Source: Octopus vulgaris (taxonomy: Eukaryota). From it: a DNA stretch of 64,000 nt. Location of the stretch: positions 22,754,001 to 22,818,000 of the forward strand of contig OX597839.1 in NCBI GenBank assembly GCA_951406725.2, given 5' to 3'. This document shows positions 1,384-62,596 of the stretch, piece after piece (position 1 is the first letter of the stretch; the number at the start of each line of letters is the position of its first letter). A model generated the notes under the pieces. It was given only the letters and a program-made list of their open reading frames with translations, was not told where the DNA came from and ran no database searches. The position numbers were made by a program, and so were the translations under genes.

Positions 1384-1425
1384 CTCTGACCATATTTCAG
1401 TCTTATTAGACCTCTTCAGCAAGCT
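1384..1425 (-). ncRNA. degenerate minimal hammerhead ribozyme motif
   Basis: Minus strand reads CUGAAGA-GGUC-UAAUAA-GACU-GAAA-UAUG-GUC-AGAG. Core and stem II are intact, stem I is imperfect. Confidence 0.55.
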
Positions 1426-1554
1426 GAAGACTTCCCTGTAGTTCCCAAACTAGTAATAAAAGAATCAGTAAACCCTTATCTCAAAGGGAACTGACATAAA
1501 ATCTCTAAATGCATGCAAAAAGAACATTACATTAAGAAGAAATATAATATTCTA

Positions 1555-1790
1555 AGAAAAGCCATCATCACCATTAGACATCCCTGTTCCATGCTGGCAG
1601 AGGGTGGATGGTTTGAGAAGATCCAGTGGGTTTGAGGATTGCATTCTGCTCCTACATCTGATTTGGCATGGTTTCTACAGCTAGCTGTCCTTCTTGGCAC
1701 CAACCACTTTATGGTGTGTGTGCTGGTTGTTTTAGTTGATAGCACCAGCACCAGTGAGGTCACCATGCAGACTGCAAGAGTAAAATCCCC
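1555..1790 (-). mobile_element. decayed RTE-type LINE 3' end
   Basis: Diverged match to the 30915 and 53800 elements (CATCATCA..TTCCATGCTGGCA..GGTTTCTACAGCTAGCTG). Confidence 0.55.
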
Positions 1791-2048
1791 TGCAGCTGAG
1801 TGGGAAGGGAAGTGGGAAAGGGAAGCGGCTTCATTCTGGGAAATGAAGGGCTAAAGTTTGAGAGGAAGGGCCAGAACAGAACCAGTTTCTTGTTATAGAG
1901 GAGAATATGGAGGGTGAGAAAATGTCCATTTTCCATGCTGGAAACACACATTTGTATAAAAACACATAAATATAGGCATACATATACATATGTGTAGACA
2001 TGTATGTACATATATGTATGTAAATATACAAATACTTGTGTTCCGAGA

Positions 2049-2353
2049 AGTATGTGGGACGCAGTTGAGCGAGAGACCAACAAAACTCCTTGTAACACCA
2101 AAGATCAACTGAAGGCAAGGATTATGGCAGCATTCACCAATTTAAACAAGGAGACTGTCCAGAAGAGTTGCAGGAGATTCCTAAGTCGTCTGGAGGCCGT
2201 GGTTGAAGCCAATGGCAATTTTATTGAATAAATTTACTCATTAGTATTTCAAGATATTTTAATGTAATTTTGGTAAAAATATCTGTTAAAATGAGATGTC
2301 AGTTTTATTTTCATTTTGCGTCATTTAGATGACAATATATTCACCGCACCCTG
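2049..2353 (+). mobile_element. Tc1/mariner-superfamily transposase C-terminal fragment plus right TIR
   Basis: WDAVERETNKTPCNTKDQLKARIMAAFTNLNKETVQKSCRRFLSRLEAVVEANGNFIE* resembles the Tc1/maT C-terminus. The element ends ...CACCGCACCCTG followed by TA. Confidence 0.85.
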
Positions 2354-3629
2354 TATATATATATATATATATATATATATATATATATATATATATATAT
2401 ATATATATACATAAATGGATCTATAATTGGATCTGGTGATTATTAACCCACCTCTTTTATTATTTTGACACATCAATATATGTTTATAGGTAATTAACTT
2501 CTATTACTTATACAAGCATCTATAAGTCAATTAGAGTTAATTTACGTATAATTATATATTTGTGGATGATAGTTTTCCTCCTTTTATGAGAGAATTTTAT
2601 GATCTGAGAGTGTCATAGTATGTTTCCTATATTTTTATTCATTAGGATCTAATTTATAGAAATTGATTTAGTAATAATTAATTATTACCTATAGATGATG
2701 ATGACGATGATGATGATGTATTTTGCATTATTTATTGCATTTAAGATTTATGCTCGTCATCTGTAGTCAGGGTGCAAGCATTTTGTTTTATGTGTTTGCA
2801 AACAACATTAAATTACAGTTCCTAAGTCTGTTTGACACCAACAAAAATAATGAAGCTGCCTTCGTGTGTTGAAATTATAATGACTTCTGATCGGCAGAGG
2901 ATGAAGGGAATTTTCCAGCCTTGTTAAATAAGGTTTTTTAGGTGCACGTTAATGTCTCTGTTCCAGTATTTCTGTCCAGTGGGATTTCCTTCACTCACCT
3001 GGTGCCTTGGGTCCTTGACAGAATGTGTTAAAGGGACAAACATATGACTGTTATTTACAGGAACTGTTTAGTCAAAAACTACGCTTTAGGTTGGAAAGCC
3101 ATTCGAAGGCTGATGTATGTGTGTGTGTGCGGGTGGGGGTGTAGGCTTGGCTGTATGGTTAGAAAAGCTTGATCCTTAAGCAAGTGGCTTCGGGCTCAGT
3201 TCTGCTGCGTGGTCCCCTTGGGCAAGAGTTTTTACTATAACACCAGGCTGACCAAAGCCTTCTCAATGAATGTGGTAGAGGGAAACTGAAAAAAGCCCAT
3301 TGCTTATGCGTTTGTGTGCTGTGAGGGCAGATGGCTTAGTGGTTAGGGTGTTGCACTCACAACCTAGTGATCCTGATTTCAATTCTTAGTCCACTTGATG
3401 CCCAACACTTCATCTCATGCTGCTCTGTGATCACTTCGACACCTGACACATGGATAAGGGTTCATTACAGGAAGAACATCCAGCCATACGAAATATAACT
3501 CAGGCAAGCATAGAAAAGTGAACACTAAAATCATGGTATATGTGTGGTGTGTGTGTGTGTGTGTGTTTATGTATATATATGAATAATATGAATATGCACA
3601 CACACACACATATATATATATATATATAT

Positions 3630-3870
3630 CCTTCATTATTATTCATTATTATTATTATTATTATTAAAGCTGCAAAAACATCACAGAAATATGACGTTTC
3701 CATTTGTCGGCCAGTTTAGACTGTTCGATGAATGGGTATGTGAAACTCTGAGTAGCAGATTTTTCTGATATTTCTGCAGCTTTAATAATAATAAAGCATA
3801 TTACTCTACCTTCGGTATTCGAGTACTATTTTTTCCTACCTTGTTTCACAATTAAGTGCTTACTCTGGTA
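3630..3870 (+). mobile_element. fold-back Penelope-like relic with hammerhead motif (3721-3758)
   Basis: Inverted arms ~3655-3715 and 3720-3793. CUGU-UCGAUGA-AUGGGUAUGU-GAAA-CUCUGAG-UA-GCAG. Flanked by TA microsatellite. Confidence 0.6.
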
Positions 3871-59810: not shown

Positions 59811-59848
59811 TGCTAACTCAAAAAGGTAGATACCTTTTTGAGTTAGCA
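59811..59848. repeat. perfect 18 bp-arm palindrome
   Basis: TGCTAACTCAAAAAGGTA-GA-TACCTTTTTGAGTTAGCA. Confidence 0.95.
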
Positions 59849-60331
59849 CTGACTTATAAACCTTTGCGAAAATAAAATGCAGTGTCCCTTCCAAAATATG
59901 TACCGAACCATTTGGTAAAAATACATAAAAAAAGCAAAGTCAATCTTGGCAGAATTTGAACTCAAGACATAAAAATGGACAAAATACCACTAAGCATTTT
60001 GCCTGGTGCAGTAATGATTCCACCAGTTTGCTATCTTACGGAGCAGTAAAAATGGTTAAATATTTTGGCACAAAGCCAGAAAGTTCAAGAAAGGGGACAA
60101 GTCAATTACATCGACCCCAGTGATCAGCTGGTACTTTTTTTATTGACCCTGAAAAGATGAAAAACCATTTGGTAAAAGAAAAAAAAACCCCCCAAAATAT
60201 CAAGTAAAAACAAAATCAAAAATGAACTGCAATAAACTATTTTCCAATATCAGAAACAATATTTCGTTCATATTTGAGCCAAATTAATACAACACAAACA
60301 TTTTTTATCTTATATGATCTGCGTGTTACCA

Positions 60332-60345
60332 GTTTCCATGGAAAC
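60332..60345. promoter_or_regulatory. perfect palindromic RFX X-box motif
   Basis: GTTTCCATGGAAAC in non-repetitive sequence. Confidence 0.4.
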
Positions 60346-61385
60346 CAGGATGTCTAATGAATTCACCAAAGGTAAAAGCTACTCTGAAGAACAAAACTAT
60401 TGAAGGTCTGCATTGATAAAAGGGTAACAACAGGTTCCACAGAGAATGGCTATGTTCAAGACATTAGGCTTCTATTCTTCCTAATGGCAAAATAGTTTAT
60501 TCCGAGAAACCGTTTCCAATGCCGACATTTCTCTGAACCCTACTTTACTTAGAAAACAAAGAATTGGATTAACTTAGTTAGCATTTGACTTGTTACCATT
60601 GATTTTCTTCCCTCTGAGACTCTAAGCTAGAACAATGATAATCTAATGGAAGAGGTTCCTTGGTCCCAACATAAAACCATTTCTCTTTCAAAGACATTTT
60701 ATCAAAACTTCTTCATTTAAAACAGAATCAAACATAAACCAATGTTGCTGTTGTTGTTGTTGTTTGGCACCAAGTCATCTTTGAAGGAGTAAATCTATCA
60801 TCAAAGACATTCCAGCAGTGACCATTCAGGTTTTCAAGTATGTGCGTATGTGTATGTAAGTATGTGTGTGTGTGTGAGACTGTTTGTATATGTATGACAG
60901 AGAGTGTGTGTGAGTATGCATGTATGTGTATGTGTGTGAATGTGTATGAGAGAGAGGGAGTGTGTGTGAGTATGAGAAAGAGAGTGTGTAAGAGGAGAGT
61001 GTGTGTATGTGTGTGTGTGTGTGTGTGTGTGTGTGTGTGTGTGTTAGACAGCCAGGGACTCCTCAATGCATCATCCAAGGCAATAAGGGAATGATTTTAA
61101 AGAAAATCTGGCTGCTACTTTCAGCTGGTCAAACAACCAAGTAAATGTTCCTTCATTAACTCACCAGTTAATTAATCACCAGTAATTTCGAATATTTTAT
61201 GAATGAAAATAAATTTTCTCTTCTTTTGTAGAACTTAATTTCAGTCTCCCCACAAATGACAGTATACTCAGCCACGTACACATTCATTTAACAAACAGCT
61301 ACTTTGGTTAATCAAACAAGAAAAACTTCGTTACCAGAATCATTAATTAGCCGTTTACTATCATATTTTATCTAACATACATATA

Positions 61386-62200
61386 TTCTTTTATTCTTTT
61401 ATTTGTTTCAGTCATTTGACTGCAGCCATGCTGGAGCACCGCCTTTTAGTCAAAGAAATCAGCCACAGGAATTATTCTTTGTAAGCCCAGTACTTATTCT
61501 ATCAGTCTCTTTTGCCGAACTGCTAAGTTATGGGGGACATAAACACACCAACATTAGTTGTCAAGCAATGATGGTCTTGGGCAGCACACACCCTAGCTAC
61601 GCTAGTGATTGTGTGTACCTATGATAGGATCTCATCATCATCATCATCGTCGTTTAGCATCCGTTTTCCACGCTAGCATGGGTTGGACGGTTCTACTGGG
61701 GTCTGTGAAGCCAGAAGGCTTCATCAGGCCCAGTCAAATCTGGCAGTGTTTCTACGGCTGGATGCCCTTCCTAACGCCAACCATTCCGTGAGTGTAGTGG
61801 GTGCTTTTTACGTGCCACCCGCACAGGTGCCAGATGCATAAAATATGCACATGTGCAGGCACGGGTGTGTGATAAAAAGCTTGCTTCCCAACCACATGGT
61901 TCTGGGTTCAGTCTCACTGTGTGGCACACACCAAATTCTGGCAAGTAGATTTGGTAGACAGAAACTGAAAGAAGCCTATTGCATGTGTGTGTGTGTGTGT
62001 TTGCTTATATTTACCTCTCATCACTGCTTGACAACCGGTGTTGGTATGTTTACACCCCCATAACTTAGTTGTTCAGCAAAACAGACTGATAGATTAAGTA
62101 CCTGGCATATAAAAAAAGACTAAATACTGGGGCCAATTCTTTAAACTGGTGCCCCAGCATGGCCACAGTCTAATGACTGAAACAAGTAAATGTTAAAAGA
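61386..62200. mobile_element. family-A SINE tail (-), RTE-type 3' end (61632-61833, -) and old family-A SINE (61855-62200, +)
   Basis: Similarity to the other copies in the window. Confidence 0.75.
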
Positions 62201-62345
62201 TACACAAATGTGTGTGTGAGTCTCTATAATAAACACACACACATTCGCGTGCACGCGCACACACACACACACATGCACGCACGCATATATCGTCAGTAAA
62301 TCATAAATCCTCCCAAGTTACAGAGCAGTGGAGCATTTAGAGAAA

Positions 62346-62596
62346 GGTAGTTAAGGCCGGTTCATAGGGTCACCCCAGGCTTTTGCATCCATAAAGCGTG
62401 TGGCAGAGCCTAAAGGCCAGTAGCTTATAACCTCTCTTCGAAGTGGCAGGAGAAAAGGCCTCATGGCTAGTTTTTGGACACACAAAGAAGAGAGGTTATA
62501 GGCCACTGGCCTTTAGGGTCTGACGAGATGTATGTAAAGCCCAGTGCATTATGCACCTGAAACCCTGGGTAACCCCATGAACTGGCCATAACTGTC
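62346..62596 (+). mobile_element. fold-back element with near-intact type I hammerhead (62515-62576)
   Basis: Inverted arms ~62346-62438 and 62487-62596. GGGU-CUGACGA-GAUGUAU..AUGCACC-U-GAAA-CCCUGG-GUA-ACCC. Confidence 0.75.

Follow-up and report, generated by a model that had tools for sequence, protein, structure and literature searches.

Decayed minimal hammerhead ribozymes of six repeat families in an Octopus vulgaris locus, apparently tails of Penelope-like elements and retrozyme-like units

Are the short hammerhead-like strings scattered through a stretch of octopus DNA the remains of ribozymes and, if so, which elements left them there? The question is raised by 64,000 nucleotides (nt) of the Octopus vulgaris genome (assembly GCA_951406725.2, 2.8 Gb in 227 contigs; contig OX597839.1, positions 22,754,001 to 22,818,000 of the forward strand, G000:C26:22754001-22818000 in our numbering), here called the window. 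A preliminary description cited nine hammerhead-type strings in the window, and all nine were found at the positions given. We conclude with good confidence that they are decayed minimal type I hammerheads of six families, designated by letters. Families C and F are the 3' ends of Penelope-like elements (PLEs), B and D likely have the same origin, and E and A (with its relative G) are likely retrozyme-like. The finding is real and is largely explained by the known association of PLEs with hammerheads (PMC4209133; PMC8557442).

The genome (G000) was searched with each cited site; at most the best 40 relatives were scored and at most 30 loci (given as L numbers) were fetched per search. All nine sites are members of dispersed repeat families with relatives elsewhere in the genome. 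First-look candidates numbered 66 for A (site 1384), 3339 for B (3721), 4768 for C (36581 and 32537), 291 for D (38338 and 38488), 8 for G (41449), 1834 for E (59527) and 1197 for F (62515). The preliminary description saw at least six mutually unrelated families. Sites 1384 and 41449 are in fact related (cross-matches with E values of 1e-5 and 3e-8), so that the families number six. The family consensuses recover both core boxes (CUGAnGA and GAAA), the cleavage triplet and the three helices of a minimal type I hammerhead. All 11 consensus core bases are present in A, D, E, F, G and the C subfamily of the window, and B reads CCGAnGA (U4C). Individual copies with a complete core make up 6 of 33 in A, 3 of 45 in B, 25 of 41 in C, 4 of 24 in D, 24 of 36 in E, 9 of 43 in F and 3 of 8 in G.

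A generic type I descriptor matched none of the nine sites with a perfect core and two with one mismatch. With a palindrome-aware descriptor, one mismatch allowed, there were three matches in the window (two at cited sites) and none in the reversed or the complemented sequence. Rfam reported no hammerhead in three short stretches of the window; for the whole window, the best 150 of 454 matches were microsatellite-driven microRNA matches only. We then used an even sample of 80 evenly spaced 10-kb stretches, 800 kb in total. When helix I was required to have at least 4 base pairs (bp), this sample held nine perfect-core motifs with a palindromic helix III, against none in the reversed sequence and none in any of four shuffles, and motif frequency is thus above that of shuffled sequence. 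Lowering the cut-off to 3 bp gave 10 perfect cores against one in the reversed and 3, 2, 0 and 0 in the shuffled sequences, and motifs with one mismatch numbered 34 against 8 reversed. The seven family profiles found 39 matches in the sample and none in its reverse; 24 belong to C and its relatives, and a few lack the core. By extrapolation, which is not a count, the genome would hold about 30,000 perfect cores and about 130,000 family matches. The density of about one per 8 kb given earlier is roughly right in order, the families of the window by themselves giving one match per 20 kb of the even sample. Perfect-core hammerheads of at least four further families were seen outside the window (L248, L266, L274, L292).

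Stem pairing ranges from 0.58 to 0.99 across the families and mostly exceeds that of slid controls. Helix III, a short palindrome, is paired at 0.79-0.99, and its palindromic form, noted at the outset, is restored in the consensuses. Helix II of E is G-C in 21 and A-U in 9, and stems that are unlike between families are still paired. Two-sided changes affect 10 of the 34 pairs of D helix II, several of them explicable by CpG decay. The four inverted-repeat fold-backs of the preliminary description are borne out (B, D, E and F); to the arms it listed at the cited sites we add three that it omitted, at 3724-3658 (minus), 59661-59710 (plus) and 62444-62333 (minus). Divergent (head-to-head) pairs number 16 in 30 loci for B, 16 in 30 for F, 8 in 24 for D, 5 in 30 for E, 1 in 29 for A and 1 in 30 for C, counts that are affected by the bias of the B, D, E and F queries toward fold-backs.

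Family C was traced to a parent element. Its copies in the window are:

32441..32615, minus strand: family C copy 1, a 5'-truncated 3' end of a putative Neptune-type PLE, with its own 3' end in (TA)n
32538-32572, minus strand: hammerhead of C copy 1 (cited as 32537), with U4C, one helix II mismatch and an intact 4-nt palindrome
36479..36690, minus strand: family C copy 2, flanked by two (TA)n runs; its hammerhead, at 36582-36615, carries G8A

Copies of C end in (TA)n about 105 nt past the cut site. In the other direction, among 18 copies at loci that C itself had not fetched, 12 stop 92-111 nt upstream of that site. No Neptune-type PLE frame was found in the window. The upstream walk from longer C copies crossed 1-2 kb of (CA)-rich non-coding sequence and then reached the end of a reading frame. 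Among 30 loci fetched with this frame end, 22 carry reverse transcriptase (RT), zinc-linker or GIY-YIG remnants, all broken; the linkage to RT and GIY-YIG frames that had been proposed as a check is thus found for this family. A sense C hammerhead lies within the 1.5-kb flank at eight of the 30, six of which also carry remnants. On these grounds C is the 3' end of a decayed PLE, placed in the Neptune type by its motifs. The possibility that C is a fixed 210-nt unit resembling a short interspersed nuclear element (SINE) was ruled out, because longer copies continue into the coding frame. The parent shares with Neptune-type PLEs an RT, a CX2-5CxxC-type linker, a C-terminal GIY-YIG domain and (TA)n targets (PMC8557442); it differs in its 1-2 kb (CA)-rich 3' untranslated region and in that all 30 sampled parents are broken. 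The commonest C-related subfamilies have fixed A6U (12 of 24 even-sample matches), intact helices and (TA)n ends, e.g., L249:1056-1140, L291:7153-7246 and L246:7939-8016.

Family F is represented by one fold-back:

62305..62605 (fold-back span about 62333-62608): family F fold-back, 3' ends of a putative Hydra-type PLE; outer limits approximate
62444-62333, minus strand: F minus arm, core deleted
62515..62576, plus strand: hammerhead F, 11 of 11 core bases, box 1 at 62520-62526, GAAA at 62559-62562, predicted cut after 62571

The hammerhead at 62515 has one mismatch near the base of helix II. A reading frame stops about 130 nt upstream of the F hammerhead. Of the 30 loci that the sequence upstream of the hammerhead served to fetch, 28 carry the hammerhead downstream of it. 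The translation of the frame, read by eye, includes a CxCX5C linker, a YIG motif and the pattern CxxC..E..N..CxH, which are features given for Hydra-clade PLEs (PMC8557442). These motifs support assignment of F to the 3' end of a putative Hydra-type PLE. F has the CxCX5C linker, CxxC and CxH in common with Hydra-clade PLEs, among them Hydra-1_Obim (Craig et al., 2021, PMC8557442), and (TA)n ends are a further shared feature. The 4+1+4 palindrome with central mismatch of B and F is listed for Hydra-clade hammerheads. The supplement of the same paper gives such hammerheads, one of them from Octopus bimaculoides. F differs from Hydra-1_Obim in its hammerhead, which is unlike the one listed, and in an N/S-rich insert in the endonuclease. 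This insert, seen in L376, L378, L381 and L385, is long, N/S/T-rich and of low complexity, and it separates the first strand of the endonuclease from the YIG motif.

A frame beside one F copy (L027/L189) has RVT_1 and GIY-YIG matches. It was ruled out as the F parent, having its own hammerhead with a U3-A8 pair, and it belongs to a young family of putative Neptune type. All 65 scored copies of this family are 99-100% identical and most of their frames are open, which shows that PLE machinery has been active recently in this genome. The compensated U3-A8 pair is present at 29 of 30 loci, and the young family is therefore not the parent of any family in the window. Its loci (L191-L220, e.g., L191, G000:C8:52214512-52219545) have a 784-codon frame, an apparent upstream region resembling an open reading frame (ORF), a hammerhead about 700 nt after the stop, and both tandem and head-to-head pairs. 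The U3-A8 core is common to related older families (L226, L249, L266).

Family B likely also derives from a PLE:

3655..3870 (fold-back span 3655-3794): family B fold-back, long plus arm ending in (TA)n
3724-3658, minus strand: short inverted arm of B, which holds only the part 3' of the core
3721..3758, plus strand: hammerhead B, from the family with CCGAnGA (U4C), with C3U and a weak helix II as further changes in this copy

The family combines a Hydra-type palindrome with a 3-bp helix II, U4C and (TA)n ends. U occupies core position 4 in a fraction of 0.13 of 45 copies, and 3' ends fall at two sites, +36-43 and +103-107. Copies of B, C and F were seen in mixed orientations at the ends of Neptune remnants (L027, L034, L131, L231, L244, L249), suggesting that PLE insertions accumulated in (TA)n targets common to them. 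Two near-identical locus pairs 11-16 kb apart (L142/L143 and L140/L141) are local duplications that include a B fold-back.

Family D, likewise of likely PLE origin, has a hammerhead with a long helix II:

38116..38607 (fold-back span 38286-38603): family D fold-back, long minus arm and short plus arm
38338..38445, minus strand: hammerhead D of the long arm, box 1 at 38441-38435 (A9G), GAAA at 38353-38350, 8-nt palindrome
38452..38552, plus strand: hammerhead D of the short arm, box 1 broken at 38456-38462, helix II deletion, GAAA at 38537-38540

Box 1 of D had been misplaced. The CUGAnGA lies about 35 nt outside the coordinates first cited, at 38441-38435 (minus), with its broken copy at 38456-38462 (plus). 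No helix I pairs in register with the string originally taken for box 1, which forms one side of a hairpin within helix II; in D copies, helix I and an unbroken CUGAAGA are found some 60 nt farther 5'. The D consensus folds unprompted into the hammerhead frame with helix II as a 92-nt rod (81 nt in the long arm of the window). Across 22 copies, those of the window excluded, this helix is paired at 0.83 against 0.31-0.39 in slid controls, with z = -4.9 against base shuffles; RNAalifold returned no structure for D. Motifs of other families with a helix II of 55-57 nt occurred twice in the even sample (L223 and L268, both minus) and not at all in two controls. Among the hammerheads tabulated in PMC8557442, loop 2 reaches about 36 nt at most. 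These long-helix forms suggest that published hammerhead counts are too low.

Families E and A/G are of a different kind:

1239..1524, minus strand: copy of family A, whose retrozyme-like unit measures about 304 nt; extent from profile, limits approximate
1384..1424, minus strand: hammerhead A, with box 1 (1419-1413) and helix II preserved and U16.1 missing
41400..41560, plus strand: copy of family G, a relative of A, with box 1 preserved (41449-41455) and U16.1 missing; approximate limits
59435..59762: fold-back of family E, whose retrozyme-like unit measures about 407 nt; main arm minus, inverted partial arm 59661-59762 plus
59524..59564, minus strand: hammerhead E, with box 1 (59561-59555) and helix II preserved and U16.1 missing

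Sequence downstream of the E hammerhead re-enters the sequence upstream of it through one junction common to the long copies. The unit is 407 nt (L176), and under permissive BLAST scoring 13 of 29 copies exceed one unit, eight of them by more than 40 nt. A 304-nt tandem of A was found in L106; among 23 other copies, 7 or more cover each of the 16 bins of this unit, and two exceed it. Tandems occur in 3 of 30 loci for E (310, 386 and 407 nt) and at unit length in 1 of 29 for A, and no array beyond a partial dimer was found in these 30 E and 29 A loci. E and A are thus ORF-less units with a fixed junction, within the 150-450 nt range of retrozymes, and copies that span the unit require a tandem or circular template. 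The fixed junction and the tiling of the unit support the retrozyme-like reading proposed earlier, and E and A/G are likely protein-free units copied by PLE machinery. E 3' ends fall at two sites, about +152-175 and about +263-287. A 1.05-kb tandem spacing in two A loci was judged a coincidence because the spacers are unrelated. Like animal non-LTR (long terminal repeat) retrozymes (Cervera & De la Pena, 2020, PMC7229834; Li et al., 2026, 10.64898/2026.07.22.740005), E and A comprise ORF-less units of 300-400 nt with one type I hammerhead each, low GC (0.31 in E), and monomers with partial dimers. Unlike those described in these sources, the copies are old (70-85% alike), are often folded back, have preferred 3' end sites, include no array beyond a partial dimer and are described here from genomic DNA.

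What was observed directly is 5' truncation, a head-to-head inverted copy and, in B and E, two 3' ends per family. Of the copies at loci that their own family had not fetched, a single one among 18 for C and a single one among 16 for B has its 5' end within 5 nt of the cut site. The cut site as determinant of the 5' end was ruled out, since the ends lie away from it; in B and D they cluster just upstream of helix I. We propose that a PLE protein would nick DNA, often in (TA)n, and that target-primed reverse transcription could start at either of two RNA sites downstream of the hammerhead and usually end 40-110 nt beyond the cut site. A second, inverted copy would often be added, giving a head-to-head fold-back with one long and one short arm. 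The ribozyme of the parent RNA is predicted to cut as a dimer through its palindromic helix III, and the inserts would derive from uncut RNA and then decay, leaving the copies of the window largely inert. Two internal starts were found in vitro for an anole PLE; mutants of its ribozyme were inserted as usual, and none of the RNA-seq reads terminated at the cut (PMC11167929). A dimer hammerhead is predicted to lie below two monomers in energy for A, B, D, E and F, and for D it equals the best two-strand fold. The earlier label of non-coding PLE derivatives stands in part: the PLE link is carried by RT and GIY-YIG remnants in C and by motifs in F, and is suggestive in B and D. C and F, being the ends of elements that encode proteins and have lost their 5' parts, do not form a separate non-coding class.

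Several results weigh against this account. The roughly 270 nt of upstream sequence shared by B copies hold no frame, and no parent frame was reached. Two D copies (L070, L074) show by eye a stretch resembling a frame end about 200-250 nt upstream, with a profile score that is not significant, and the one match in a search with this frame end was the query itself. A protein search with the F frame end gave 0 of 10 candidates, and the upstream walk of F stopped short of an RT. Helices I and III of E pair no better than slid controls. Scoring covered only the best 40 relatives of each search, and longer parents of E and A may have escaped it. In C the dimer hammerhead has no energy advantage over monomers, and in C and E its energy is far above that of the best two-strand fold. 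Dimer self-cleavage is a prediction from computed energies, and the Neptune and Hydra labels are putative, taken from motifs.

Three other explanations bear on this. The hammerhead-shaped fold may no longer be catalytic and may persist as a binding or stopping signal for the PLE protein. Whole families with altered cores (U4C in B, A6U in half of the C-superfamily matches of the even sample) are consistent with this, as are inserts from uncut RNA, 5' ends of B and D just upstream of helix I, and the anole PLE whose ribozyme mutants were without effect on insertion in vitro (PMC11167929). However, the full 11-base consensus is kept in A, D, E, F, G and the C subfamily of the window, the young Neptune-type family has a compensated U3-A8 pair, and U4C is a working viroid variant (PMC3088659). 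We consider a purely structural role rather unlikely.

The preliminary description suggested that some copies could still self-cleave within host pre-mRNA, which would affect processing of the host transcript. This may be asked of each copy. Only F at 62515 has the complete core, and the other eight cited copies differ: U16.1 is missing from A, G and E, the C copy at 36581 carries G8A, one arm of D has A9G and the other a broken box 1, and B combines C3U with U4C. The C copy at 32537 carries U4C, which is reported to be weak in vitro but viable in a viroid (PMC3088659). In seven of the nine the change goes beyond U4C. Folded with 250-nt flanks, helix II has a probability of 0.37 at 32537, 1.0 in E and 0.11 in A, and of at most 0.01 in the other four of the seven copies tested, F included. 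Host cleavage is favoured by the intact F core, by C at 32537, where U4C is the single change and some helix formation is predicted in context (0.30, 0.37), and by relatives abundant enough to offer possible partners in trans. Against it, cleavage is poor even in minimal hammerheads that are intact (PMC4209133), and no locus in the window has two sense copies in tandem, a head-to-head fold-back placing only one sense ribozyme in a transcript. No host gene was found in 1-14702 (Pfam, six frames, 0 families) or in 54600-63900, where the aligned contigs fall mostly on repeats and reveal no clear spliced exon. Given the core changes in eight of nine copies, the lack of a host gene in these stretches and 5' ends away from the cut site, host pre-mRNA cleavage by these copies is unsupported, and we judge it very unlikely. 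Chance matches in AT-rich repetitive DNA, to which the failure of the strict descriptor at all nine sites and the Rfam results might point, are refuted, with hardly a doubt, by independent copies that recover the core in every family, by nine perfect cores against none in five controls, and by a position downstream of an endonuclease, as in known PLE hammerheads.

The window as a whole is dense in microsatellites and in a 400-bp SINE-like repeat, presumably of an octopus type. Copies of this repeat lie at 844-1246, 13728-14138, 17674-18506, 19919-20345, 21653-22064, 22872-23284, 36024-36437, 40993-41390, 55886-56266 and 62606-62955, with others besides; several adjoin hammerhead elements, and the repeat is highly abundant in contigs aligned to the window. 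Also present are a 2.2-kb (TA)-type array at 38718-40919, a 180-bp tandem (3.3 copies) at 58294-58878 and tandems of 62-63 bp at 31090-31320 and 53958-54180.

Minimal hammerheads are known from the pseudo-LTRs of PLEs (Cervera & De la Pena, 2014, PMC4209133). The families described here share with them the CUGAnGA and GAAA boxes, a helix I of 3-5 bp, a helix III that is palindromic or lacking, an additional base ahead of helix II (C and F), the U3-A8 variant, and mostly single dispersed copies with opposite-strand pairs 100-700 bp apart. They differ in the 92-nt helix II of D, in U4C (B and a C subfamily) and in A6U of the commonest C subfamilies. Our extrapolated figure for perfect cores exceeds the 2,000-9,000 reported there for three species, though with different descriptors. 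A repeat annotation of Octopus vulgaris describes Penelope-like expansions with recently active families and, in the portion available, does not mention ribozymes (PMC13282606); 235 Rfam hammerheads were counted in the giant squid (PMC6962438). A literature search, in part too loose to inform, gave no paper on octopus PLE hammerhead families or cephalopod retrozymes. Because the association of PLEs and hammerheads is established, the main result is ordinary, and the variants of core and helix are minor additions to it.

The side results bear on an open question, the function of PLE hammerheads. Tentatively, and with more doubt than confidence, this genome could carry roughly 100,000 hammerhead relics that amount to a natural series of mutants (U3-A8 in an element that seems to be active, U4C, A6U, helix II of 10-92 nt), in which the 92-nt form would cleave as a dimer and represent a class missed by standard descriptors, and E and A would be the first cephalopod retrozymes, spread as circular RNAs by PLE proteins. 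Copies apparently made from uncut RNA, large subfamilies with altered cores and a young family with a compensated core together mean that matched natural variants (U4C, A6U, U3-A8) within one genome are suited to assay side by side.

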